A stretch of 64,000 bases of DNA, from NCBI GenBank assembly GCA_965223485.1, contig OZ244993.1, forward strand, positions 74,958 to 138,957. The letters run 5' to 3'. Shown piece by piece: positions 2,351 through 63,902 of this stretch (position 1 is its first letter; every line of letters starts with the position of its first letter). Made by a program: the position numbers and the translations under genes. Source of the DNA: Rhodothermales bacterium (GTDB lineage: Bacteria; Bacteroidota; Rhodothermia; Rhodothermales; VXPQ01). The notes beneath the pieces are model-generated. The model saw nothing but the letters and a program-made list of their open reading frames with translations. It was not told the DNA's origin and ran no database searches.

Positions 2351-2462
2351 GGCATGATTGTCGTAACGACGTAGCGTATCCCGCCGCCCCTCGACATCTC
2401 GATATAATTCCCTATAATTCCCTTCCAAAAACTGCGCAATAAACAACTCTTCCGATATCTCC

Positions 2463-4172
2463 ATGACGAAATCTCTTTGGGACGAATACCTCGCGGCGGC
2501 GCAAGAGAAATACGAAACGATCAAGCGGGAAGAAAACTACAAGTTCAATCTTGCGGCGGCGTTAGCGAAAGCCCGCACGGCGTTGTTGCGCGATGAACCG
2601 GATTGGCCGGACCTGGCGACGGGGGCGGTCAGGCACAAGCACAACAATCTTATACACTGGATGAACCAAGGGAAGGTAGTGCGGTGTATCGCCAGCAACC
2701 CGGACGAGGTGCGGGATGCGCTTCGGGAAATGTGGTCCGAAGACGACCGAACGCCCGGCGACCGCATTCGCGCATTCGACGACAGACTATCCGAAAGCAT
2801 GCTGGATATTCCGCCGAGCGCGGTGGGCTCGCGCCTCACGATCGCGTCGTATTTCATGATGGGGCTCGACGCGCAACGGTATCCGCCGTACCAGAAAAGA
2901 AAGTTTCAATCCACATATAAACAACTGGACTATCCGCAATCCTCCGCCGACGATGCGGGCGAGGAGTACGAGCACGCCCTAAGCTTCCTGGACCGCATGC
3001 TCGAAGAAGCGCGGAGGCGGGACATGGACAAACCCGCTACCCGGATGGACGCGCAATCCGTCGTCTTCTGGCTGGTTAATCCACCTCCTCCACCCCCCAA
3101 TGGTACCCCAGTTGAACCCCCGCACCCCCTGAACACGATCCTCTACGGCCCGCCCGGCACCGGAAAGACCTGGCACACCGTCACCCGGGCCGTGGCGATC
3201 ATCGAAAACCTGGAAACGGACGAGGTAGCGCGGGAGAACCGCAGCGACGTGAAAGAAAGGTACGACATATATTCGGACGCCGAACAGATCGAAATGGTGA
3301 CGTTTACCCAGAACACCACCTACGAAGATTTCGTCGAAGGCATCCGGCCCGTCCTGTCGAATGGCGCAAGCGCCGACGGGCAATCTTCGCCCGAACACAG
3401 CGAGTCCGGAGACATCCGATATGAGCTTTCCCAAGGCGTATTCCGGGGCATCGCGGAGCGCGCGGAGAAGAACCCGAACCGGCCTTATGTGCTCGTCATC
3501 GACGAAATCAACCGCGGCAACATAGCCCGGATCTTCGGCGAACTGATCACACTGGTCGAGGACTCGAAGCGGATCGGGAAGCCCGACGAAGCCCGGGTGA
3601 GGCTACCCGGCTCGAAGACGGATTTTGGCGTGCCGTCGAACTTGTATCTCATCGGGACCATGAACACCGCCGACCGCTCCATCGCGCTGATGGATACTGC
3701 GCTACGGAGGCGGTTCGCGTTCGAGGAGATGATGCCGGACCCGTCTCATGATGGCGTCAACAAGGACATCGACGGCATCGACTGCGGCAAGGTCCTTGAC
3801 GCCATAAATGGACGCATCGCCGTGCTGCTGGACCGGGAGCATCAAATCGGACACACCTATTTCCTCGGCATCGACTCGATGGCAGCGCTTGCCGAGACGT
3901 TTCGGCGCCGCATCATGCCGCTACTCCAGGAGTACTTCTACGACGACTGGGAAAAAATCCGGGCGGTTCTGAACAACAACGAGTTCGTCGTGAGCCGGGA
4001 TCTGCCTGACGAGCTGGTCCGACGGGATCTGGTCGAATCCACCCGGAGAGTATACGATCTGCTGCCTGCCGACCACAAAAAGTGGACCGATCCGGCGGCG
4101 TACCGAGTTATCTACGAAACGCCCACAGCGGCGGCGGAAACGGACGACGACAGTGAATCGCAGCGCGACTGA
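2463..4172 (+). CDS. mcrB: McrB-family AAA+ GTPase of a type IV restriction system
   Basis: Walker A GPPGTGKT, Walker B LVIDEINRGN, McrB signature MNTADRS, ALRRRFAF, IGHTYF, PLLQEYFY; N-terminal ~205 aa domain separated by a poly-Pro linker. Confidence 0.93.
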   Translation: MTKSLWDEYLAAAQEKYETIKREENYKFNLAAALAKARTALLRDEPDWPDLATGAVRHKHNNLIHWMNQGKVVRCIASNPDEVRDALREMWSEDDRTPGDRIRAFDDRLSESMLDIPPSAVGSRLTIASYFMMGLDAQRYPPYQKRKFQSTYKQLDYPQSSADDAGEEYEHALSFLDRMLEEARRRDMDKPATRMDAQSVVFWLVNPPPPPPNGTPVEPPHPLNTILYGPPGTGKTWHTVTRAVAIIENLETDEVARENRSDVKERYDIYSDAEQIEMVTFTQNTTYEDFVEGIRPVLSNGASADGQSSPEHSESGDIRYELSQGVFRGIAERAEKNPNRPYVLVIDEINRGNIARIFGELITLVEDSKRIGKPDEARVRLPGSKTDFGVPSNLYLIGTMNTADRSIALMDTALRRRFAFEEMMPDPSHDGVNKDIDGIDCGKVLDAINGRIAVLLDREHQIGHTYFLGIDSMAALAETFRRRIMPLLQEYFYDDWEKIRAVLNNNEFVVSRDLPDELVRRDLVESTRRVYDLLPADHKKWTDPAAYRVIYETPTAAAETDDDSESQRD

Positions 4173-7202: not shown

Positions 7203-9466
7203 TGATCGCGCGCCTGCCACGGAACGCTTGCATTCTTCTCGGGCTTATCGGGCTCGCGCTATTGTTCATGCCGAACCGCGTCCATGCGCAGCAGTATGCC
7301 GCCGTGCGCGGGTTCGTAACCTCCCTGGAAGACGGACAACCACTCCAGGGAGTACACGTTATCCTTACACAGGACGACACCATTCTCGGCGCCGTAACCG
7401 ATCCCGACGGGATATACCTGATTGGCCGCGTTCCGGAAGGGCGGTACATACTCCGGGCCACATTTATCGGGTTCGAGACCTTTGCGGACACCCTCGACCT
7501 TGCAGCGGGCGACTCAAGGCACCTCGACATTGCACTGGCCGAGCAACAAGCCGCAATAGGTGAAGTCATCGTCGAGGCCGAACGGGAAACCGGCGCTGCC
7601 CACGTGACCGCAGGCCAGCAACGAGTGCTCCCGCAAGACATCGAGTTGATCCCCTCGCCCAGCGTTTCCGGTGATCTCGTCAACTACCTTGCCGCCCAGC
7701 CCGGCGTGGTATCCATGGGAGATCGTGGAGGGCAGGTCTTCATCCGAGGCGGAGAACCCTCCCAGAACCTTACGCTGCTCGACGGCATGCATATCTACCA
7801 GCCATTCCACCTGCTGGGGTTCTATTCGGCGTTCCCGTCGGACATCATCAATAACGCGGACATCTACGCAGGCGGATTCGGCGCCCAATTTTCGGGACGC
7901 CTCTCCTCTGTTATCGATGTGCAAACACGCAACGGCAACAAACGGCAATACGAAGCAGGCGTCGCGCTGACGCCCTTCGTAAATTCGGCCCGTCTGGAGG
8001 GACCGCTGGTGGGAAATATTTCATTCCTCGGATCGGCCCGCATCTCGACCCTCGAAGAAGTGGCGTCCCTCTATGTGGCGGACGACCTGTCCTACCGGTT
8101 CGGCGACCTGTTCGGCAAGATGCACATCCCGATCGCGCGGAATCACCAGACTTCCGTTTCGGCGGTGCATACGTTCGACCGGGGCACATTGGCGGAGCCG
8201 ACGCTCTTCAGCTCCAATAATGAGATTCGCTGGAAAAACACCGCGCTCGGCCTACGGCATCTCGTGCTCCCCAGGGCGCTTCCCATCCTCGGCGAAGCCC
8301 TGTTTTCCTGGTCCCGTCTCCAAACAGAGTACGGGCCGCGCGACGAGCCGTCCCGAACCACCGACATAGACAACTACAATCTTGAAGTCAATTTTACCAA
8401 CTTCGGGCAAAGCGTTGAAGTGGGATGGGGGTTCTTCGCGCGCAATGTCGAACTCACTGCAAACCTCGGAGGGACCTACCAGAACATCGTGGACAACTTC
8501 GTCCGCTCGACCAACGCAGGCGGGTGGGTGGAACCGGAATTCGACCTTGGCAACGGCCTCCGGCTGCGGATCGGCGCAGTCGGGCAGTTCTTCGGCAATT
8601 CAGGCTTTTTCGTGGAGCCGCGCATGCGAGGCGTCTATGAACGGGGCATCCATCAGTGGAGTATGGCCGGCGGCATGTACCGGCAAAACATCATTGGGCT
8701 AAGCGATCGGCGCGACGCCGCCAGTATCTTTACAGCCTACGCAGAGGCGCCGACCGGAGAGGTTCCAACCGCCCTGCATGGCATTGCCGGGTATAGGATC
8801 ACGCTCTCTTCGTCCCTCGAACTCTCGACGGAAGCGTTCTACAAGAATCTCCGTAACCTGTTTATTGCGGAATGGACGTCCTTTCCCCGTTTCACGACAC
8901 GACTTCAGCCGGCGGACGGTACGGTCCGCGGCCTGGACCTCCGCGTAGAGTTCCATCGTCCGAATTTCTACGCCTACCTCAACTACGGCTACTCCTCGAC
9001 CCGGTACAATGCTATGCAGGAATCGCTGCCTGTATGGTTCGGCACGGATCGGCTCGCCTTCCGTCCGCCGCACGACCGGCGCCACCAGCTCAACCTGATC
9101 CTGAGCGGGTCCGCGTACGGATTCGACATGAGCGCCCGCTGGAATATCGGATCGGGCCTTCCCTATACCCAGGTGCGCGGTTTCGACGGATTCATCCTGA
9201 TGGATGGCGTGGTGGATGTGGAAGGGATCCAGGGCTTCCCGCGCGTGATCTACGATCGGCCCTACAAGGGTATTCTCCCCACATACCACCGGCTCGACGT
9301 AACGATCGGGCGGCAGATGTCCACGCGCGCGGCGGACATCACCGTGCAGATCGGCGCCATCAACACCTACAATCGGCCCAATCTTTTTGCTCTGGACGTA
9401 TTTACCCTGCAGCGAACCGACCAGCTCCCCTTCGTTCCCACTGTGGGCATCGAGATCGAATTCTGA
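7202..9466 (+). CDS. TonB-dependent outer membrane receptor
   Basis: Signal peptide, carboxypeptidase-regulatory-like domain, plug (IRGGEPSQNLTLLDG), YHRLDV, C-terminal aromatic residue (IEIEF); ATG overlaps the upstream stop. Confidence 0.9.
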   Translation: MIARLPRNACILLGLIGLALLFMPNRVHAQQYAAVRGFVTSLEDGQPLQGVHVILTQDDTILGAVTDPDGIYLIGRVPEGRYILRATFIGFETFADTLDLAAGDSRHLDIALAEQQAAIGEVIVEAERETGAAHVTAGQQRVLPQDIELIPSPSVSGDLVNYLAAQPGVVSMGDRGGQVFIRGGEPSQNLTLLDGMHIYQPFHLLGFYSAFPSDIINNADIYAGGFGAQFSGRLSSVIDVQTRNGNKRQYEAGVALTPFVNSARLEGPLVGNISFLGSARISTLEEVASLYVADDLSYRFGDLFGKMHIPIARNHQTSVSAVHTFDRGTLAEPTLFSSNNEIRWKNTALGLRHLVLPRALPILGEALFSWSRLQTEYGPRDEPSRTTDIDNYNLEVNFTNFGQSVEVGWGFFARNVELTANLGGTYQNIVDNFVRSTNAGGWVEPEFDLGNGLRLRIGAVGQFFGNSGFFVEPRMRGVYERGIHQWSMAGGMYRQNIIGLSDRRDAASIFTAYAEAPTGEVPTALHGIAGYRITLSSSLELSTEAFYKNLRNLFIAEWTSFPRFTTRLQPADGTVRGLDLRVEFHRPNFYAYLNYGYSSTRYNAMQESLPVWFGTDRLAFRPPHDRRHQLNLILSGSAYGFDMSARWNIGSGLPYTQVRGFDGFILMDGVVDVEGIQGFPRVIYDRPYKGILPTYHRLDVTIGRQMSTRAADITVQIGAINTYNRPNLFALDVFTLQRTDQLPFVPTVGIEIEF

Positions 9467-51533: not shown

Positions 51534-52436
51534 ATGCTCCAGACCTTCGACGAGCGCAACCGGAATATCCTTGTCAATATCAACGGCGCGCTGACGCCCC
51601 GGGACGAGGCGGGCGTGAGTCCGTTCGACAGCGCGGTACAGGGCGGGGACCTCGTATGGGAAGGGCTCCGTCTGTACGAGGGCCGCATCTTTCGCCTTAT
51701 CGAACATCTCGACCGGCTGAAAGCGTCGGCGCAGGCGCTGGCGTTTGCGGTCATTCCCTCGCACGAAGAAATCATCGGGGAAGTGCGTCGTACGCTGGAG
51801 GCCAACGGCATGCGGGACGGGGTGCATATTCGCCTGTCGCTGACGCGGGGGGTGAAAATCACGTCGGGCATGGACCCGCGCCTGAACCAGAGCGGTCCGA
51901 CCCTGATCGTGCTGGCCGAATACAAGGCCCCGGTGTACCAGACGGACGGGCTGTCGCTCATAACGAGTTCCATCCGGCGGTTTCCGCCCGACTGCCTGGA
52001 CCCGAAGATTCATCATGGGAATCTGCTCCAGTCGATCCTGGCCAAAACGGAAGCGAATACGGCGGGGGCGGACGATGCGCTGATGCTGGACCGCAGCGGG
52101 TTCATTGCCGAAACGAACGCCACGCATATCTTTCTGGTGAAGAACGGGGCCGTGCTGACGGGGCATACCCATGCCTGCCCGGAAGGCATTACCCGGCAGG
52201 TCGTGCTGGAATTGTGCGCAGCGCACGGCATCGAGTCCGACGTGCGGAATCTGTCTCTGGCGGAGGCGTACAGCGCAGACGAAATGTTCTGTACGGGAAC
52301 GATGGGCGAACTGGCGGGCGTTACGCGGCTCGACGGACGGACGATCGGCGACGGGCGCATCGGACCGATGACGCAGCGCCTCGGCGAGCTGTACCGGGAG
52401 GAGACGGCGCGCAGCGGGGTTGTGGTGGTGGAATGA
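51534..52436 (+). CDS. PLP-dependent aminotransferase class IV (BCAT/DAAT/ADC lyase-like)
   Basis: DSAVQGGDLVWEGLR, HLDRL, DPKIHHGN (PLP Lys), AETNATHIF, CPEGITRQ, ADEMFCTGTMGEL. Confidence 0.92.
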   Translation: MLQTFDERNRNILVNINGALTPRDEAGVSPFDSAVQGGDLVWEGLRLYEGRIFRLIEHLDRLKASAQALAFAVIPSHEEIIGEVRRTLEANGMRDGVHIRLSLTRGVKITSGMDPRLNQSGPTLIVLAEYKAPVYQTDGLSLITSSIRRFPPDCLDPKIHHGNLLQSILAKTEANTAGADDALMLDRSGFIAETNATHIFLVKNGAVLTGHTHACPEGITRQVVLELCAAHGIESDVRNLSLAEAYSADEMFCTGTMGELAGVTRLDGRTIGDGRIGPMTQRLGELYREETARSGVVVVE

Positions 52437-52605
52437 GACGGTCGCGGACCGCACCGATGACGCAGCGCCTCGCCGGGCTGTACCGGGAGGAGACGGCGTG
52501 AGCGGGTTGTGGTGGTGGAATGAGGCGGTCGCGGATCGCACCGATGACGCAGCGCCTCGCCAGCCTGCACCGGGAGGAGACGGCGTGAGCGGGTTGTGGT
52601 GGTGG
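52364..52605 (+). repeat. Three tandem copies (~88 bp) of the aminotransferase 3' end
   Basis: ACCGATGACGCAGCGCCTCG...CCGGGAGGAGACGGCG...GGGTTGTGGTGGTGG starting at 52364, 52453 and 52540. Confidence 0.93.
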
Positions 52606-55521: not shown

Positions 55522-55833
55522 ATGATACCTGCTATCCAAGAACAGCGAGACGAGTTACAACAGCTCTGCGACCACTACCAGGTTCTGCGGCTGGACCTGT
55601 TCGGCTCGGCCGTCACCGGAGATTACTACGAAAACGAAAGCGACATTGATTTTCTGGTCGAATTTCAAAAACTCCCACCCGGAAAATACGCCGACGCCTA
55701 TTTCGGACTGCGCGAAGATCTGGAATTATTATTTGGCCACCCTGTGGACCTTGTCGTCGATTCGGCCATCAAGAACCCCTTCTTCCGGCAACGCATCGAT
55801 GAAACCAGGACCTTGCTCTATCATGCAGCTTGA
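55522..55833 (+). CDS. mntA: Minimal nucleotidyltransferase antitoxin (MNT)
   Basis: LFGSAVTGDYYENESDIDFLV (GSx10DxD), LFGHPVDLV, IKNPFF. Confidence 0.88.
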   Translation: MIPAIQEQRDELQQLCDHYQVLRLDLFGSAVTGDYYENESDIDFLVEFQKLPPGKYADAYFGLREDLELLFGHPVDLVVDSAIKNPFFRQRIDETRTLLYHAA

Positions 55834-56164
55834 GTCTCAAAAATACCTGTACGACATCAGGGAAGCTGCGCACTTACTGGAAATATTCGTTGCTGGCAAA
55901 ACTTTTGAGGATTATCGGTGCGACGCCATGTTGCAAGCCGCGGTAGAGCGCAAGTTCGAGATCATTGGCGAGGCCATGAATAACCTTGCCAAAATCGACA
56001 AAGTCGTGACCTCTCGGATCACTAACTATCAACGCATCATTAGTTTCCGCAACGTTCTGAGTCACGAATACGGTAACGTGGATGACCGGCTGGTGTGGGG
56101 GGTTCTCGAAACCAATCTCCCGGCCCTCGTTCGCGAGATTGACGCCCTGTTGAAGGACGAATGA
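55823..56164 (+). CDS. hepT: HEPN/DUF86 ribonuclease toxin (HepT-like)
   Basis: AVERKFEIIGEA, FRNVLSHEY (Rx4H), YGNVD; overlaps the MNT gene by 11 bp. Confidence 0.88.
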   Translation: MQLESQKYLYDIREAAHLLEIFVAGKTFEDYRCDAMLQAAVERKFEIIGEAMNNLAKIDKVVTSRITNYQRIISFRNVLSHEYGNVDDRLVWGVLETNLPALVREIDALLKDE

Positions 56165-56321
56165 GGAGGGTCTGTCCGACGACCGCCCCCACCTCACCCC
56201 TCTCCAAACGCCCCGCTATCGATCATCTGCTGAAAGAAATCCGTCATGGACTCTTTCAGCGGGCGGTACGTCATGCCCAGGGCGCGTTTGCTCTTGGAAT
56301 TGTCGGCTATCCAGGGATGCA

Positions 56322-56978: not shown

Positions 56979-57012
56979 CGCATGCCTGCCGGATAGGGCA
57001 GGGCCCCAAGAC

Positions 57013-57170
57013 GAATGAACGGCCCGCATGCACAACGCTGCGCGCGGCGCATCCTCAACAATCTCCGGACGGGCAGCAGCGCGAACGAACGGCCCGCATG
57101 CACAACGCTGCGCGCGGCGCATCCTCGACAATGTCCGGACAGGCGCAGCGCGAATGAACGGCCCGCTTGC
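57013..57170. repeat. About 2.3 tandem copies of a ~70-bp GC-rich palindromic unit (REP/BIME-like)
   Basis: GAA(T/C)GAACGGCCCGC at 57013, 57083 and 57152; internal inverted repeat ACGCTGCGC...GCGCAGCGC. Confidence 0.85.
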
Positions 57171-57189
57171 AAGGTGCGGCGCTCCGGCG

Positions 57190-58102: not shown

Positions 58103-60391
58103 TCAGAAATCGAAGGTGAATGCAATGTTCGGCAGCGGCACGGGAATCTGCGGTATTTCGTTCCGTACGATATCCGCTGCGTCGGTGAAATCGAAGAAAT
58201 AGAACCAGATATTGCGCCGGCTGTAGGCGTTGAGCACCTGCGCCTGTAATTCGAAATCCGCTCCGAACAGCGTGGTGCGCCAGGAAACGCCTACATCCAG
58301 CCGGTGATAGGGGGGCAGGCGGCGATTGTTGTATTTCGTGACCAGTACATTGGACCAGTCCGAATCAAACGGCGAATTCACGAGTCGGTATTGTGCGAGC
58401 GGTTCGGTGTAGGCCTGCCCGGTTGCATACACCCAGACGGCGCTGGCCCGAAAGGCGCGTGATATTTCGACATTGAGCACGGTCTTCACGTCCAGCGTTC
58501 GATCGTGTTTGGGCGAATAGAACCCGAAATTGTTGATGTTCGGAAACCGGCGCCGGGTACGGCTCAGCGTGCCGGCCACAAACCCGTTCACGCGCCCTTG
58601 CGTGCGCTGCACGGTCGTTTCGAGGCCATAGGCATGGCCATCCCCGAAATGAAACAACTCGGCATAGTCCAGCCCCGCCACGTCCTGCACGAAAGGATCC
58701 CACTCGAAAAGATCCTGCATCGTACGGTAATAGGCCTCAACATCCAGATTGAAACCCAGCGGCGAGATGTGCTTCATGCCGATCACCGCCTGATTACCGT
58801 AAGCAGGGCGTACCCCCTCTCCGGTGGCCAGCCAGGTATCGAATCCCGAAAAAATTTCGCTGGTTATGAGCGTGAGGAACTGGTAGTATCGCCCGTAGGC
58901 AGCCTGAAGCCGCAAAGACGGCATCGGTTCGTATTCGAACGACAAGCGAGGGGACGCCCGGACAAACCGGCCCTCCTCGAAATAATTGCCCCGGACGCCG
59001 CCCTCGATGGACACGCGGGGCGCCGGCCGCCAGGTGGCCTGTGCATACGCCGATGTATACACGCTCCGGGTACGCCAGTCAAGCACTTCCTCCTCGTTGA
59101 AGTCGGTGTGCAAACGCAATGTCAGGAATCCTGACCAGAAACCGGCCTTCGCCGAAATATTCCCGCCGGGGATGTATTCAAAATCGCCCTTGACGGAAAT
59201 ATCGTCTACCGTGTTGTCGTTCTCGATAGGCGTGGCCGCCAGCTCTATCACCGGCTTGCTGAAATACTTCGATCCCGTGAACGTGAAGTTGGAAAAGAGC
59301 TCCTGCGAAAAAAGGTGGGTCCAGTTCATGCTCAGCGACCTGTTCCCGTACCGGATATTCACAAGAGCGTCGTCCACGATTTCGATGTCGAGCGCATCCT
59401 GTCCGGCATAGAACGCAAGCGAAAAGAAGTCCCTGTTCGACAGGTCGAAATTGAATTTTCCATTCACGTCCACAAAGTAAAACGCATCCGGAATGCCCTG
59501 AATGTCGGCCTTGCGCAAAAAATACAATATCGGCTCGATGGTGGACCGCCGCATCGCCAGCATATAGGAACCGCGGCGCCAGGGACCCTCGATGATCCCC
59601 CGCGACGAAAGCAAACCGATGCTGAGGCCGGCGTCGAATTCGCGCCGGTTGCCGTCCCGGTTGTAGATATCGACTACCGAACCCAAACGACCGCCGTACT
59701 CGGCAGGAAATCCGCCCTTGTAGAGCCGCACATCCTTGATGGCGTCCGGATTGAACGTCGAAAAAACACCGAAAAAATGCGACGGGTTGTAGATGGAGGT
59801 GCGGTCGAGCAGAATGAGCGTCTGATCCGGCCCGCCTCCCCGGATGTAGAGACCGCTCGAATAATCCGAGGCCGCCTTCACGCCGGGCAGCAGTTGCAGG
59901 GATCGGAATACGTCCGGTTGCAGGAACGCCGGGAGCGACTTGATGAGCTGCGTCTGGAGTTGTTGTACGCCGATTTTGCGGGCTTCGTACAACTCCTCCC
60001 GCTCCCCGGTGACCGTGACTTCCTCTATGTCTTGCTCTTCCGGGGATAGTTCGATATCCAACCGGCGCTGCTCGCCGGGGGCCAGTTCGACCTCGACGCG
60101 CTCGGTGCGATACCCGATGTAGGACACCACGACCGTCAGGGCGCCTGGCGGAATACCCGTCACTGTGTAGTATCCCGAGTTGTTGGTGGCCGCCCCGATC
60201 GACGTGCCATCCACCCGCACATTCGCCAGGAGCAGGGTTTCGCCGGAAGTAACGTCGCGGACATATCCGCTGAGCGAGGCACCCTCCCGGACGGTATCCT
60301 GAGCAAGCGCCGCTCCTGCAATCGCAACGGATAGAAGCGCCTGCAGGAGACAATACGAAATACGCATGAACAGCAGTCGCCTCAACGGCAT
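58103..60391 (-). CDS. TonB-dependent outer membrane receptor
   Basis: LSGYVRDVTSGETL domain; plug IRGGGPDQTLILLD; NPDAIKDVRLYKGGFPAEYGGRL; YHRLDV; C-terminal TFDF; start 60391 or 60367. Confidence 0.92.
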   Translation of the reverse strand: MPLRRLLFMRISYCLLQALLSVAIAGAALAQDTVREGASLSGYVRDVTSGETLLLANVRVDGTSIGAATNNSGYYTVTGIPPGALTVVVSYIGYRTERVEVELAPGEQRRLDIELSPEEQDIEEVTVTGEREELYEARKIGVQQLQTQLIKSLPAFLQPDVFRSLQLLPGVKAASDYSSGLYIRGGGPDQTLILLDRTSIYNPSHFFGVFSTFNPDAIKDVRLYKGGFPAEYGGRLGSVVDIYNRDGNRREFDAGLSIGLLSSRGIIEGPWRRGSYMLAMRRSTIEPILYFLRKADIQGIPDAFYFVDVNGKFNFDLSNRDFFSLAFYAGQDALDIEIVDDALVNIRYGNRSLSMNWTHLFSQELFSNFTFTGSKYFSKPVIELAATPIENDNTVDDISVKGDFEYIPGGNISAKAGFWSGFLTLRLHTDFNEEEVLDWRTRSVYTSAYAQATWRPAPRVSIEGGVRGNYFEEGRFVRASPRLSFEYEPMPSLRLQAAYGRYYQFLTLITSEIFSGFDTWLATGEGVRPAYGNQAVIGMKHISPLGFNLDVEAYYRTMQDLFEWDPFVQDVAGLDYAELFHFGDGHAYGLETTVQRTQGRVNGFVAGTLSRTRRRFPNINNFGFYSPKHDRTLDVKTVLNVEISRAFRASAVWVYATGQAYTEPLAQYRLVNSPFDSDWSNVLVTKYNNRRLPPYHRLDVGVSWRTTLFGADFELQAQVLNAYSRRNIWFYFFDFTDAADIVRNEIPQIPVPLPNIAFTFDF

Positions 60392-60624
60392 GGCAGGGGG
60401 CAAGGAGAAGCATCTTGTTTTCGCCCGGCGCCGGGAAAGGTTCCGGGGGGGAGACGCCTTGCTCGGATGGGGGGGCGGGACGGCGGGAGGGATACTTGAG
60501 CAAAAAATCGCTGCGGGGTAGTCGGGTTGGGCTGTGCGTGATTTTATTTGGGAATTATAACTAATTGTTGACAGGCAGGGGATTCCTGCTTTAATATATA
60601 GGGGGGTTATATACCTAAAAAGAA

Positions 60625-60903
60625 ATGTGGAGGCAATTCGATGCAATCGACCCTGACAACGATCTGTGGGAGCGCCTGCAAAAGGCGGAGTAGCGTTTCG
60701 ATTACCTGCAAGGGGAAAAGGTGGAACGCTTGAAGTCCGAGATCAAGGAACTGGAGAGTCTGAATCAAGCCATTGACAGATACCATATCCAGCGGTGCGA
60801 TGCGGCGAGTGATCTGACCATGGCCTTGAGGGCGCTGGAAACCATTGGCGCTATCAAGTTGCCAACCGAACACCCGGAGGCACAAGCAGAGCAATCTGCC
60901 TGA
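60625..60903 (+). pseudogene. Cargo ORF 1, coiled-coil protein interrupted by an in-frame TAG
   Basis: MWRQFDAIDPDNDLWERLQKAE, TAG at 60691-60693, then RFDYLQGEKVERLKSEIKELESLNQAIDRY...QSA. A strong GGAGG RBS instead precedes ATG 60641 in another frame, so the 5' end may be decayed. Confidence 0.45.
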
Positions 60904-60956
60904 TTCCCCCCTTGGTGGAAAACGAAACCCTAAACCCTGAATCCGCGAGGAAAACC

Positions 60957-61322
60957 ATGCCTATTGGAAGAAAAACCACGTACGTTATTACGCCCGTAGA
61001 CAGCCCGATTGCATTCAGGGATGGATCAGACCAACCGTTCAGCAACGTGGACGGGAATGAGGATGAGGCCGTGGAGCAATGGTATTTCAAATACGCCGAG
61101 CGCTTTCTGGAATATCCAGAGGGGGAAACCGCCGTTGTTGCTGTCACGATCACTGATCCATTCTTGGGCGAGATCGGAACGTTTAGGGCACGCATTATTC
61201 CCGGCTGGGTAGGGGTAAGTATAGAACCGGACACGGGTTCAGCAGGGGTTGTAAACGATATGTTGACAGCCGCTAAAAACCCCGAATTGGCCAAGCAATA
61301 CTTGACGCGGAAAATATCCTGA
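60957..61322 (+). CDS. Cargo ORF 2, hypothetical protein
   Basis: GAGG RBS, ATG at 60957, open 121 codons, no recognisable domain. Confidence 0.6.
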   Translation: MPIGRKTTYVITPVDSPIAFRDGSDQPFSNVDGNEDEAVEQWYFKYAERFLEYPEGETAVVAVTITDPFLGEIGTFRARIIPGWVGVSIEPDTGSAGVVNDMLTAAKNPELAKQYLTRKIS

Positions 61323-61400
61323 ACAAGCAAAACAGGGATGCGCGTTGTGGAGCGATGCGCTTGGACATGCTTTCCAAATAACCCAAACCAACGAGGATAC

Positions 61401-61949
61401 ATGAAATACACAGAGACATTCACGGCGTTTGTGCGGTTCATCCGTGGGATCGAGAACGACTACAGCGCCGAGAAAAACGTGGACGGCTACATGAACGAGT
61501 TTCGGCAGGCTTACCGCGAGCGGTTCGATTGGCACAAGCCGTACGCCAGCAGCCCGGCAGACTTCATGCGTGAATTCGCCTTGCCGATGGAATTCAACGG
61601 TACGCACGTAATCGTCGAAGGGTCGTTCAAGAAGAACCTGCACGGTCCAGACACCCATATCGACACGTTGATCGTTCGAATCCCGAAGGAAGAATTCGAG
61701 ATCGACAGCGGCGAAATGAAGAGCAGGGACCGAGACACGTTGTTCTGGTTGATCGAGTACATCAAGCCGGATCCGACCTACCTGATCCCGTACGCCGAGG
61801 TGCAACCTCGATGGGAACAGGCGGAATCCGATGAAAACCTTGAGTTCATGAACTCCGGGCCGGTCGGCATGGAATACCGCGAAAAGCCGCAGCGCCCGTT
61901 GCAGGAGCAATACAGGGTGTACAATCCCGAACTGCAAACAGAGAACTAA
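61401..61949 (+). CDS. Cargo ORF 3, acidic hypothetical protein
   Basis: GAGGA RBS, MKYTETF start, 182 codons, GC-rich third positions. Confidence 0.7.
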   Translation: MKYTETFTAFVRFIRGIENDYSAEKNVDGYMNEFRQAYRERFDWHKPYASSPADFMREFALPMEFNGTHVIVEGSFKKNLHGPDTHIDTLIVRIPKEEFEIDSGEMKSRDRDTLFWLIEYIKPDPTYLIPYAEVQPRWEQAESDENLEFMNSGPVGMEYREKPQRPLQEQYRVYNPELQTEN

Positions 61950-61958
61950 GCCGGGTAT

Positions 61959-62120
61959 GTGCATACGTATTCATACGAACAGGCGGCGGAAGCATGGCTT
62001 TCTACGCCCGACAGGATGGAGCACGCTATCCACGTCAAGATCAAAAAAACCGAAGAGGACACATGGAGGACGTACAGCGTCCGGTCGACCCCGGTGGTTG
62101 ACTTCGTGTTTCAAGGATAA
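61959..62120 (+). CDS. Cargo ORF 4, small hypothetical protein (53 aa); not in the ORF track
   Basis: VHTYSYEQAAEAWLSTPDRMEHAIHVKIKKTEEDTWRTYSVRSTPVVDFVFQG; same frame as ORF 3, after its TAA. Confidence 0.4.
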   Translation: MHTYSYEQAAEAWLSTPDRMEHAIHVKIKKTEEDTWRTYSVRSTPVVDFVFQG

Positions 62121-62273
62121 TCCACCCCTATATTACCGTAACCGCTACAGCGCCGTGTTCGATGGGTTCGGTCTGCTATTCACGCCATGACCCGCGAAAC
62201 AAAACCGGCCTCGGCATGTAGGACATAAACGCAAAACGGCGGGAGGCCAGAGGAAGGAAACCTCTCAGACGAA

Positions 62274-62423
62274 ATGGTCAAAATGGTAAAGTACGAGGCG
62301 TATGCTTATGGCCTCGATATAGAAAAGGTCACGAACGTTCTGGCCATCGTGCTACGAGATGAGTTACTCGCAATCTATAACGTAGACTTGCCGTCGCCGG
62401 CCACGACTCGCGATGACAAGTAG
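62274..62423 (+). CDS. Cargo ORF 5, small hypothetical protein (49 aa); not in the ORF track
   Basis: MVKMVKYEAYAYGLDIEKVTNVLAIVLRDELLAIYNVDLPSPATTRDDK. Confidence 0.35.
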   Translation: MVKMVKYEAYAYGLDIEKVTNVLAIVLRDELLAIYNVDLPSPATTRDDK

Positions 62424-62471
62424 CCCTCCAGATACAGACGTAACGCGCGTTTTCGGATTCTATACGCTCGT

Positions 62472-62954
62472 TCAGGTTGTTTTTCTGCTTTTCCTGTTTT
62501 CCTGGGTGCTATCCTGACTATAATTCAGTTTTCCTGTCGCTGACAGGGCGTCATCGCCGCCATCGAATGCCTTGCGGATGCGCTGGAGCAGATGCCATGC
62601 ATTCTTCTGGGCAATACCGATGTCCCGGTGCAACTTCATGGAGGAAACGCCTTTCAGGTTCGTCATGTGCAGGTAAATGGCATATGCCCACTTGCGAAGC
62701 GGAAGATTGGAACTCTCCATGACTGTGCCGACCTTGACGCTGAAATACTTGCGACAGTCCGTGCACCAGTACGGCATAGTCTTATGCGACGCTTCACGGG
62801 TGCGTGTACCCTTGCAACGGGGGCAATGGCGACCATCCGGCCAGATACGGGCTTCAAACCATTTGCGGGCCGTTTCCTCGTCGGGAAACATGTCCGCCAA
62901 CTCCATGAGAGTAATGCCGTTTCGATGTGTTTTTCCGGGCGCTACATGCGCCAT
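62472..62954 (-). pseudogene. Truncated IS1595-family (ISXO2-like) transposase
   Basis: FPDEETARKWFEARIWPDGRHCPRC...YWCTDCRKYFSVKVGTVMESS Zn ribbon and KGVSSMKLHRDIGIAQKNAWHLLQRIR HTH; sequence diverges where the VEVDETY DDE domain should begin. Confidence 0.9.
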
Positions 62955-62979
62955 AACAATCTCCGTTTTTTGCACCTGT

Positions 62980-63008
62980 AAAATACAACATTAATTTCTT
63001 TTTGTCAA
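62980..63008 (-). promoter_or_regulatory. Transposase promoter overlapping the IS end
   Basis: TTGACA (63008-63003), 17-nt spacer, TATTTT (62985-62980). Confidence 0.6.
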
Positions 63009-63029
63009 GTATTGGTTATATAATACCTT

Positions 63030-63902
63030 TTATTTCTGCACCTCTGCCTTATACAGCTGTGGAGCAAGCGCAACATGCTGCTTAATACATCCCGGAAGCG
63101 AGAACATACGAGGATCACGACTAAAACAAAACAGTCGATACAATGCATACTGCGATTCCCTTTTCTCCGAAAAAGCAACTTCGTTCTGTGTAATTAAAAA
63201 GGGCTGATACATACCGCTATTGGTGGTTTTTACCTCAATAAACAGTTCATTATCGGTTTGACCGTCAAACGAACGAATGTCATACCCCGCGCCATCGCCA
63301 TGCTCCTTGCTTGTCCATTCTACGTCGGAAAGCAAATCGTCGCGCCCATGACGTCTCAGACGAATTTTTTCATATTCCAACACAAATTTCTCTCCTCGTT
63401 CACCGAGTTGTCTGTTACGCGCTTCCCGTGCGGTATAGTCGATACGGCGCGGTCGGGCGGCATACCCGAAAGCAGGCTCCGATACAATCCCTTTCTTTGG
63501 AGGTGTAATTCCTTTCTCTGGAGGATCAACACGAACCCTGTCAAAAAACGACTCGTCAAATAACATGCCCCTTTCCTGATTCAGTATATCTTCTTGTTTA
63601 ATCAGGTCGTTTCCTCTTATGGACAGCCTGTCTACTACTACTTCCCGTAACATTCTTTGGTAATTTTTGGCAGGGCGATAACCTCGTATATAAACGTGAC
63701 CTTTTTCCAATAATATCGCGGATATATTTTGATGTTTAAATTCTATAGAACTCTCGGACCTGTTGTTCAACTTCTTTTGCAGAACTCGACGATGCTCCGT
63801 TTTATTAAAGGGCTCTCCACGACATTCGCGCGACAACATATCGATATAATCGGCAACGATCGCTTCACACTCCACCCTGCTCCATGTATCGCCCCTGGCC
63901 AT
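63030..63902 (-). CDS. DUF3883 (NO VEIN C-terminal) domain protein, putative restriction-like nuclease
   Basis: GERGEKFVLEYE, GDGAGYDIRSF...FIEVKTT, FLITQNE, YALYRL; helical N-terminus WSRVECEAIVADY; strongly AT-rich. Confidence 0.85.
   Translation of the reverse strand: MARGDTWSRVECEAIVADYIDMLSRECRGEPFNKTEHRRVLQKKLNNRSESSIEFKHQNISAILLEKGHVYIRGYRPAKNYQRMLREVVVDRLSIRGNDLIKQEDILNQERGMLFDESFFDRVRVDPPEKGITPPKKGIVSEPAFGYAARPRRIDYTAREARNRQLGERGEKFVLEYEKIRLRRHGRDDLLSDVEWTSKEHGDGAGYDIRSFDGQTDNELFIEVKTTNSGMYQPFLITQNEVAFSEKRESQYALYRLFCFSRDPRMFSLPGCIKQHVALAPQLYKAEVQK

Follow-up and report, generated by a model that had tools for sequence, protein, structure and literature searches.

A transposase-truncated IS1595-type element with lineage-restricted passenger genes beside a candidate defence gene in Rhodothermales

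The DNA analysed here, called the window throughout, is a stretch of 64,000 nucleotides from a Rhodothermales bacterium (GenBank assembly GCA_965223485.1, contig OZ244993.1, positions 74,958 to 138,957), and the subject of this report is an insertion sequence (IS) element at window positions 60550-63027. Its inverted repeats (IRs) enclose passenger genes together with a transposase gene that has lost its catalytic half. The explanation considered probable, with a good deal of doubt retained, is that the element is a non-autonomous derivative of the IS1595 family, of the mobile insertion cassette (MIC) or transporter IS (tIS) type, which was inserted once, in recent time, and has spread by homologous recombination. 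An original prediction made from the letters of this DNA had described an IS1595-derived passenger cassette. The inverted ends, the 8-bp target duplication, the transposase without a DDE domain and the open reading frames (ORFs) were all recovered in the present analysis; the phage-like nature of the cargo and its movement in trans were not. The element is not self-mobile, and nothing indicates present movement.

Ends of the element and target duplication

The following features delimit the element.

60542-60549, no strand: left copy of the target duplication, TTTTATTT; the 8-mer occurs only twice in the window, once at each end
60550-60573, plus strand: left, transposase-distal IR, GGGAATTATAACTAATTGTTGACA; the ends of a full-length relative in locus L017 match it at 21 of 24 positions
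62544-63027, minus strand: transposase-proximal arm, 484 bp, the sole remainder of the IS body, with 82% nucleotide identity to the IS copies of L017
63003-63027, minus strand: right IR, reverse complement GGTATTATATAACCAATACTTGACA; a diverged orthologous copy lies at the same junction in the sister species L021
63028-63035, no strand: right copy of the target duplication, TTTTATTT, which holds the stop codon of the adjacent NOV_C gene

The inverted ends lie where they had been predicted and are imperfect. Their inner 18 nucleotides are identical at 15 positions, and the full ends at 19 of 25 with one indel. A degenerate 18-mer built on this core matches the window twice, at exactly the two ends, against 0.01 matches expected. 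The copies of TTTTATTT are in direct orientation, each abutting the terminal GG of an end (n = 2 in 64 kb). Since only about 1.1 occurrences of the octamer are expected anywhere in the window, its presence at exactly both ends is not a chance match, which answers the earlier concern that a low-complexity octamer could have imitated a duplication. The pair is a real 8-bp target duplication, intact as predicted, rather than an extension of the inverted repeats. As had also been foreseen, the stop codon of the neighbouring DUF3883 gene (TAA, 63030-63032, minus strand) falls inside the right copy.

The distal arm derived from the IS is approximately 70 bp long (60550 to about 60620), and some 1.9 kb of passenger DNA lies between it and the transposase-proximal arm, replacing the DDE part of the transposase gene. 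The GC content is 49-56% in the element, 60-66% in the left flank and 38-51% in the NOV_C gene. An Rfam scan of 60300-63200 gave no RNA family.

The terminal 10-mer of the IS end, GGGAATTATA, occurs three times in the window including the left end of the element, against 0.1 occurrences expected. The other two stand in tandem at 2403-2422 (minus strand), between ORFs 1298-2350 and 2463-4172, and may be the relic of another IS1595-type end.

The truncated transposase

The transposase fragment, here named Tnp', reads inward from the right end.

62472-62954, minus strand: Tnp', 160 amino acids (aa), consisting of a zinc ribbon and a helix-turn-helix (HTH; residues 1-137 in total) followed by an unrelated tail of 23 aa; recognised by PF12760 and tblastn

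A transposase N-terminus with Zn ribbon and HTH and without DDE had been predicted at this position, and this is what is present. The sole Pfam domain found in Tnp' is PF12760 (Zn_ribbon_IS1595), matched with 29.7 bits against a cut-off of 25.4, and the Zn-ribbon cysteines are all kept. The model NF033547 reaches 42 bits against a cut-off of 75 and is matched at positions 1-57 only. In a tblastn comparison with a full-length relative of 313 aa, residues 1-137 alone can be aligned (62954-62544, 88% identity), placing the breakpoint of homology at 62543/62544. Homology to the relatives stops at ...IRKAFDGGDDAL, directly before the first catalytic D (VEVDETY). No match to PF12762 (DDE_Tnp_IS1595) was obtained in Tnp', and tblastn detected no DDE remnant anywhere in the window. 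Because the catalytic domain is entirely absent, the element is not autonomous. A relative-rate test of Tnp' against the full-length relative counted 6 and 3 unique changes, respectively (chi-square 1.0), which is no significant excess.

Short homologues that comprise only the N-terminal part were considered as a case of IS1-like frameshift control. This was rejected, because in the cases examined they result from indels or IS interruptions and the DDE ORF still follows downstream. Annotation as a short N-terminal protein is frequent among database relatives of the transposase; those examined, at L104 3001-4131 and L108 3001-3940, are genes split by an indel or by another IS.

Divergence from the flanking genes and spread between strains

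The exact Tnp' protein is present on 11 contigs and the exact protein of passenger ORF C on 6, at one chromosomal site throughout. The shared neighbourhood consists of DUF4249, a TonB-dependent receptor, the element, NOV_C and gyrA. The contigs bearing the element are 96-100% identical to the window, and the host is an uncultured member of Rhodothermales. No second genomic site of the element was found among these contigs (about 11).

Divergence is 7-30 times lower in the element than in the DNA on either side of it. Among five conspecific strains, nucleotide divergence is 0-0.40% in the element, 1.3-3.8% in the TonB-receptor region and 0.1-8.9% in NOV_C. Synonymous divergence within the species is 0.003-0.010 for the element, compared to a synonymous divergence (dS) of 0.07-0.115 for core genes. 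The number of single-nucleotide polymorphisms (SNPs) per 200 bp drops from 10-24 to 0-3 exactly at the ends of the element. Between species, dS to L021 is 0.063 for passenger ORF B and 0.45-0.70 for the flanking genes, and L022 and L018, which are closer than L021, are without the element. Since the element is far less diverged than the flanks and the closer L022 and L018 do not have it, vertical descent together with the flanks is excluded. The comparisons indicate that the element passed laterally, yet always at the same site.

The Hudson-Kaplan Rm is 4-8 per kb among the five sequences. Because so high a value is reached with only five sequences, linkage to the flanks decays over approximately 100 bp. 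Most SNPs of the flanks split the window strain from the other four, and for that split the tract of low divergence extends over 60523-63155, reaching 27 bp beyond the left end of the element and 128 bp beyond its right end. This tract, the high Rm, the lack of any other copy and the lack of an enzyme to move the element favour recombination over re-insertion.

The history begins with one transposition into an AT-rich octamer at the stop codon of the NOV_C gene (candidate PDC-S36, described below), which made the TTTTATTT duplication. The catalytic DDE half and the remaining IS body have been lost, and the passenger DNA now lies between the two arms; this DNA may have been inside before the insertion or swapped in afterwards, and either order is compatible with the structure. 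In a highly recombining population, the element would subsequently have been exchanged among strains, and on one occasion across a species border, with the conserved flanks serving as the substrate of homologous recombination.

Passenger genes and promoter-like sites

Five ORFs are located on the passenger DNA.

60625-60903, plus strand: ORF A, a coiled-coil-like frame of 92 codons that begins at ATG 60625 and is interrupted by a TAG codon at 60691-60693; a remainder of 60 aa starts at GTG 60721
60957-61322, plus strand: ORF B, 121 aa, orphan family, GAGGA upstream, five intact alleles
61401-61949, plus strand: ORF C, 182 aa, orphan family, GAGGA upstream, two remote relatives
61959-62120, plus strand: ORF D, 53 aa, GTG start, doubtful; no homologue outside copies of the element
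62274-62423, plus strand: ORF E, 49 aa, doubtful; no homologue outside copies of the element

Up to five ORFs reading inward from the left end had been anticipated, and all five lie between the two arms, the first of them being the frame broken by TAG. This TAG is kept in all conspecific strains; L021 has TGG at that position, and the ratio of nonsynonymous to synonymous divergence (dN/dS) of ORF A against L021 is 0.5. ORF B has alleles in five species, all intact and 41-94% identical, with dN/dS of 0.4-0.6, and its profile returned only 3 clusters from 5.8e9 proteins. For ORF C only two relatives, with 30% and 28% identity, were obtained among 1.84e9 representative proteins. Both adjoin the orthologous NOV_C gene, and the motif W...PDPxYxxPY is common to the family. 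By these comparisons, ORFs B and C are real but lineage-restricted genes, with 3-5 sequence clusters worldwide per family. ORF D was examined as a truncated paralogue of ORF B and rejected (hhalign probability 2%).

None of ORFs A-E has a match in Pfam, NCBIfam or PADLOC. In PHROGs, ORFs A-C and E gave no match and ORF D a marginal one (E 0.05-0.08). The cargo is likewise without a match in the viral collections IMG/VR and INPHARED, and its best Foldseek hit in BFVD has an E value of 0.054, so that the description of the cargo as phage-like could not be upheld. The element has no match among PLSDB plasmids. The fold comparison that had been proposed for the cargo gave no lead: the AlphaFold2 model of ORF B (pLDDT 72) matches no PDB or BFVD fold at E < 0.05, the profile search of ORF B against PDB returned spurious WD40 matches only, and the AlphaFold2 model of ORF C (pLDDT 40) is unusable.

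Each end of the element also contains a promoter-like site.

60568-60597, plus strand: inward sigma-70-like site, TTGACA-N18-TAATAT, with the -35 box within the left IR; predicted by consensus scan
62980-63008, minus strand: inward sigma-70-like site, TTGACA-N17-TATTTT, upstream of Tnp'; predicted, with the same layout in L017 (TTGACA-N17-TATTAT)

Sites with TTGACA and a spacer of 17 or 18 nucleotides were thus confirmed, as predicted sequence matches, facing inward in both ends. As the number of promoter-like sites in the region is not above that in shuffled sequences, significance attaches solely to their location within the IRs. All relatives examined have an IR closed by TTGACA, and a promoter embedded in the end therefore seems to be characteristic of this IS clade. 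Transcription would probably be driven by these predicted promoters in both ends, and the surviving Zn-ribbon/HTH fragment may bind both ends and repress them, by analogy to the InsA protein of IS1.

The islet in sister species

In comparisons with sister species, conservation of the left flank always ends at approximately 60449-60471 of the window and that of the right flank at 63026-63039. In sister Rhodothermales, all members of the B and C families are located in the interval bounded by the orthologous NOV_C and TonB-receptor genes, mostly without IS ends. The content of this islet varies as follows, in the coordinates of each locus.

L018: C-like gene right after NOV_C, on the same strand (8001-8492); no IS ends
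L021: C-like gene (8001-8495) in the 5' untranslated region (UTR) of NOV_C, behind a conserved TTGACA...TATCCT site, and a decayed copy of the element
L022: IS1595-like end GGGAATTATACGTTTAACTTGACA located 45 nucleotides past the NOV_C stop, a small ORF, and a B-like gene with 41-47% identity to ORF B
L026: as L022, with the end removed by a deletion
L024: as L026, with the end deleted, and in addition a DUF2283/DUF4258 pair (about 1300-1760) beside the B-like gene
L025: 136 bp only

L025 is without both B and C, and L022, L024 and L026 are without C.

The flanks of L021 are 80-90% identical to the window. L021 retains a diverged version of the right end and of the point where this end meets NOV_C (...TTGTCGAATATTGGTTATAAGACC / TTTTTATT / CCTGG). 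A deletion equivalent to window 61446-62974 has removed most of C and all of D, E and Tnp'; the start codon of C is mutated, and an IS3-family element breaks the left part. The preserved stretch, which comprises the 3' part of A, B and the beginning of C, is 94.3% identical to the window. Two further sequences of L021 were considered as IRs and rejected. GGGAATTTAAGG, a candidate remnant of the left IR, is part of an IS3-family end that L022, L024 and L025 also possess. A 24-mer before NOV_C (8535-8558) has 7 mismatches and belongs to the AT-rich 5' UTR.

After the NOV_C stop, L022 and L024 read CAATAACA GTGCAGCGCCA CGCAATCTGGCTACGCTTCAG. The empty site of the window, reconstructed by removal of the element and one copy of the duplication, reads AAATAAAA TCACGCACAG CCCAACCCGACTACCCCGCAG. 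The two are colinear, with 15 of 23 positions matching in the second block, and the comparison is suggestive of an unoccupied site in L022 and L024.

An IS3-family end with its flank (GGTTCGGTTTGATTGGACAGATTTCGCGG...) recurs in the islets of all sister species (L021 10338-11600, L022 8650-8860, L024 1810-1870, L025 7866-7935, L018 7762-7790). Only L021 has a complete copy, in the opposite orientation to the others, whereas L018 and L025 have it joined directly to the 3' end of NOV_C. With its IS3 copies and relics, its deletions and its inversion, the islet is an old hotspot of rearrangement.

A setting of this kind allows for a different origin of the passenger DNA, in which a complete IS1595 element inserted here, making the duplication, and islet genes later took the place of its DDE half by illegitimate or homologous recombination, so that the cargo never travelled inside the element. 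The rearrangements of the islet are in keeping with this explanation, as is the endemic occurrence of the B and C families, which are found without IS ends in L018, L024 and L026. However, B alleles located outside the element reach only 41-47% identity to the one inside, and a local B gene therefore cannot be the direct source. L021, moreover, already has A, B and a truncated C between the same right end and the islet, and the B-like gene of L022 also adjoins an IS1595-like end. Capture of the cargo in place is consequently regarded as unlikely. Two observations also speak against the opposite assumption, that the cargo was imported from elsewhere: the B and C families are confined to this islet in sister species, mostly without IS ends, and the first ORF is broken.

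Full-length relatives and mobility

Transposase homologues number 1297. The best of them, 88% and 86% identical, are both on one contig of 2.98 Mb from a different sample. Full-length IS copies encoding the 313-aa transposase with its DDE domain are present in L017 (contig ERZ26167216 ctg495743). Their ends, GGGAATTATAAGGAATTGTTGAC(A/G), agree with those of the element as given above. One L017 copy is nested 50 bp inside another and has ATTATTAC on both sides, and because of this flanking pair the IS group can be said to insert into AT-rich targets with a duplication of 8 bp. The L017 copies carry an inward-reading ORF of 75 aa, together with a (CA)n tract, in the interval from the transposase stop to the distal end; the element is therefore not alone in having extra DNA there. 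The DLIYLDPPF motif of this 75-aa ORF, which has no Pfam match, presumably recalls DNA methyltransferases.

The element and the L017 copies are alike in their transposase (88% protein identity over residues 1-137), in ends matching at 21 of 24 positions, in an IR closed by TTGACA and followed by a -10-like box, in the 8-bp duplication and in an inward-reading ORF adjoining the distal end. In contrast to the element, the L017 copies have a DDE-bearing transposase, are about 1.4 kb in size and occur as several nested copies, and their extra DNA consists of a 75-aa gene fragment and (CA)n rather than B and C. At L017 5878-11300, nested IS1595 copies are found, one of them in the -10 region of another, with an IS3-family element as a further interruption.

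The original prediction saw in the element a small operon moved in trans. According to this explanation, a cognate IS1595 transposase encoded elsewhere mobilises an active cassette that prefers the octamer and has entered strains and species independently. It would account for the intact ends and duplication, for the return of divergence within 7-28 bp of the ends, for the presence of the element in the distant L021 and its absence from the closer L022 and L018, and for the second IS1595-like end in L022, beside a different B allele and 45 bp from the NOV_C stop. In the same metagenome samples there are also DDE-bearing relatives, 73% identical. Against this stands the single identical site on all 11 contigs; members of IS1595 are not known to be site-specific. 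A search of 15 billion proteins gave no cargo homologue at another locus, and no second copy of the element was found at another site. A close cognate full-length transposase could not be traced to this species among the 120 best of the 1297 relatives, an indirect search in which the best relative was only 88% identical and in another genome. The two ends of the element differ at 6 of 25 positions. The exact 25-mer of the empty site, proposed earlier as a check, and a 23-mer of the IS end were both without a match in the JGI metagenome contigs, a collection that perhaps lacks this habitat. Mobilisation in trans is thus rated as improbable.

Several observations nevertheless weigh against a single insertion followed by recombination. 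When all strains are considered, diversity is back within 7-28 bp of both ends. Such a boundary is sharper than usual recombination tracts and also fits precise re-insertion, and it is the best argument of a rival explanation. In L021 the junction at the right IR is approximately 80-83% identical over 54 nucleotides, diverged like the flanks, compared to 94% for A-B, and by this comparison the element may be a mosaic. The IS1595-like end of L022, at its separate position beside a different B allele, hints that cassettes have been mobile more than once. As the genomes were read only in part, a further copy or a cognate transposase may lie elsewhere in the chromosome. The promoter calls depend on a consensus of the E. 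coli type, which may not apply to Rhodothermales.

The adjacent NOV_C gene

The gene to the right of the element is a candidate defence gene.

63030-63902, minus strand: NOV_C/DUF3883 gene, outside the element; PF13020, E 8e-21; PADLOC candidate PDC-S36

The PDC-S36 model matches the NOV_C protein with an E value of 2.7e-97, residues 1-288 on positions 1-279/280. The protein is thus a full-length match to this hidden Markov model, encoded by a gene that adjoins the element and lies outside it, and it is a defence candidate by sequence only. Its C-terminal nuclease-like domain is similar to PD-T4-1 and TmtA. No mention of PDC-S36 was found in the literature searched. NOV_C of the window strain is 8.5-8.9% diverged from the other strains, as far as from other species, compared to approximately 3% for core genes, and its dN/dS is 0.2-0.3. 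The pattern resembles allele replacement or diversifying selection acting on a candidate defence gene.

The cargo ORFs converge on the NOV_C gene. Because NOV_C is co-oriented with Tnp', read-through from NOV_C would enter the element. The placement of B and C beside the PDC-S36 gene, co-directional in two species, may be taken as the only functional lead.

A further explanation is that the element is a domesticated module, in which Tnp' has been kept as a regulator of the end promoters, B and C modulate, protect from or counter PDC-S36, and selection maintains the unit. Tnp' is indeed intact, with its Zn-ribbon cysteines and without a significant excess of changes (6 against 3). Two other species have a C-like gene in the same orientation as NOV_C, in one of them within the NOV_C 5' UTR, and the unit is fixed in all sampled strains with the very low diversity expected after a sweep. 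On the other side, no B or C homologue is present in 75 PDC-S36 loci of other phyla, L025 is without both genes, and L022, L024 and L026 are without C. The dN/dS of 0.4-0.6 represents weak constraint, ORF A is broken, and L021 has lost Tnp' and C. Domestication is therefore seen as quite improbable. The wider form of this idea, that the islet is a genus-wide site of cassette exchange in which IS1595 arms serve as portable promoters and as homology, is an equally long shot. If true, it would account for a unit that is fixed and of sweep-like low diversity, and for the recurrent association of C-like genes with NOV_C.

Elsewhere in the window, a nucleotidyltransferase/HepT-like pair of the MNT-HEPN type is located at approximately 55526-56168 (L001 4121-4763), and some strains have other genes instead. 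Two tandem repeats, each 92% matching, are found at 57012-57171 (70 bp x 2.3), just past the 3' end of the DUF4249 gene, and at 52355-52605 (87 bp x 2.9).

Relation to known systems

The IS1595 family was reportedly treated by Siguier, Gagnevin and Chandler in 2009, a work cited in PMC7986276. The element shares with IS1595 and tIS members the PF12760 Zn-ribbon N-terminus, IRs starting with GG, an AT-rich 8-bp duplication and extra genes between the ends. It differs from them in having no DDE domain and in being a single copy at one locus.

Mobile insertion cassettes are known from Bacillus cereus, where MIC231 is derived from IS231. Like these, the element has IS-type ends that enclose passenger genes without a working transposase, and it is in principle movable by a cognate enzyme. 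Unlike MICs, it belongs to another IS family, retains an intact N-terminal fragment of the transposase and gives no sign of mobilisation in trans or of multiple copies.

InsA of IS1, a family to which IS1595 is regarded as related, is an N-terminal Zn-finger/HTH protein that binds the ends of IS1 and represses transcription. Tnp' has the same domain make-up, and both ends of the element carry the -35 box of a predicted inward promoter. The difference is that Tnp' is short through truncation and not through translational control, and binding and repression by Tnp' would be analogous to those by InsA.

The tIS concept covers IS1595-family members with passenger genes (PMC7986276). Compared to these, the element has no functional transposase of its own, and its passenger DNA takes the place of the catalytic segment of that gene instead of flanking the gene.

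Conclusions

The element is a clean natural example of an IS decaying into a gene-carrying cassette, with the DNA-binding half of the transposase, the ends and the predicted promoters kept. It also marks a small hypervariable islet beside a candidate anti-phage nuclease, where two gene families known nowhere else are shuffled between closely related uncultured Rhodothermales. If B or C modulate PDC-S36, this would provide a function for a defence candidate and for two orphan families. Otherwise, the locus would represent a well-resolved accessory insertion, much younger than its surroundings, that has spread through a recombining population.

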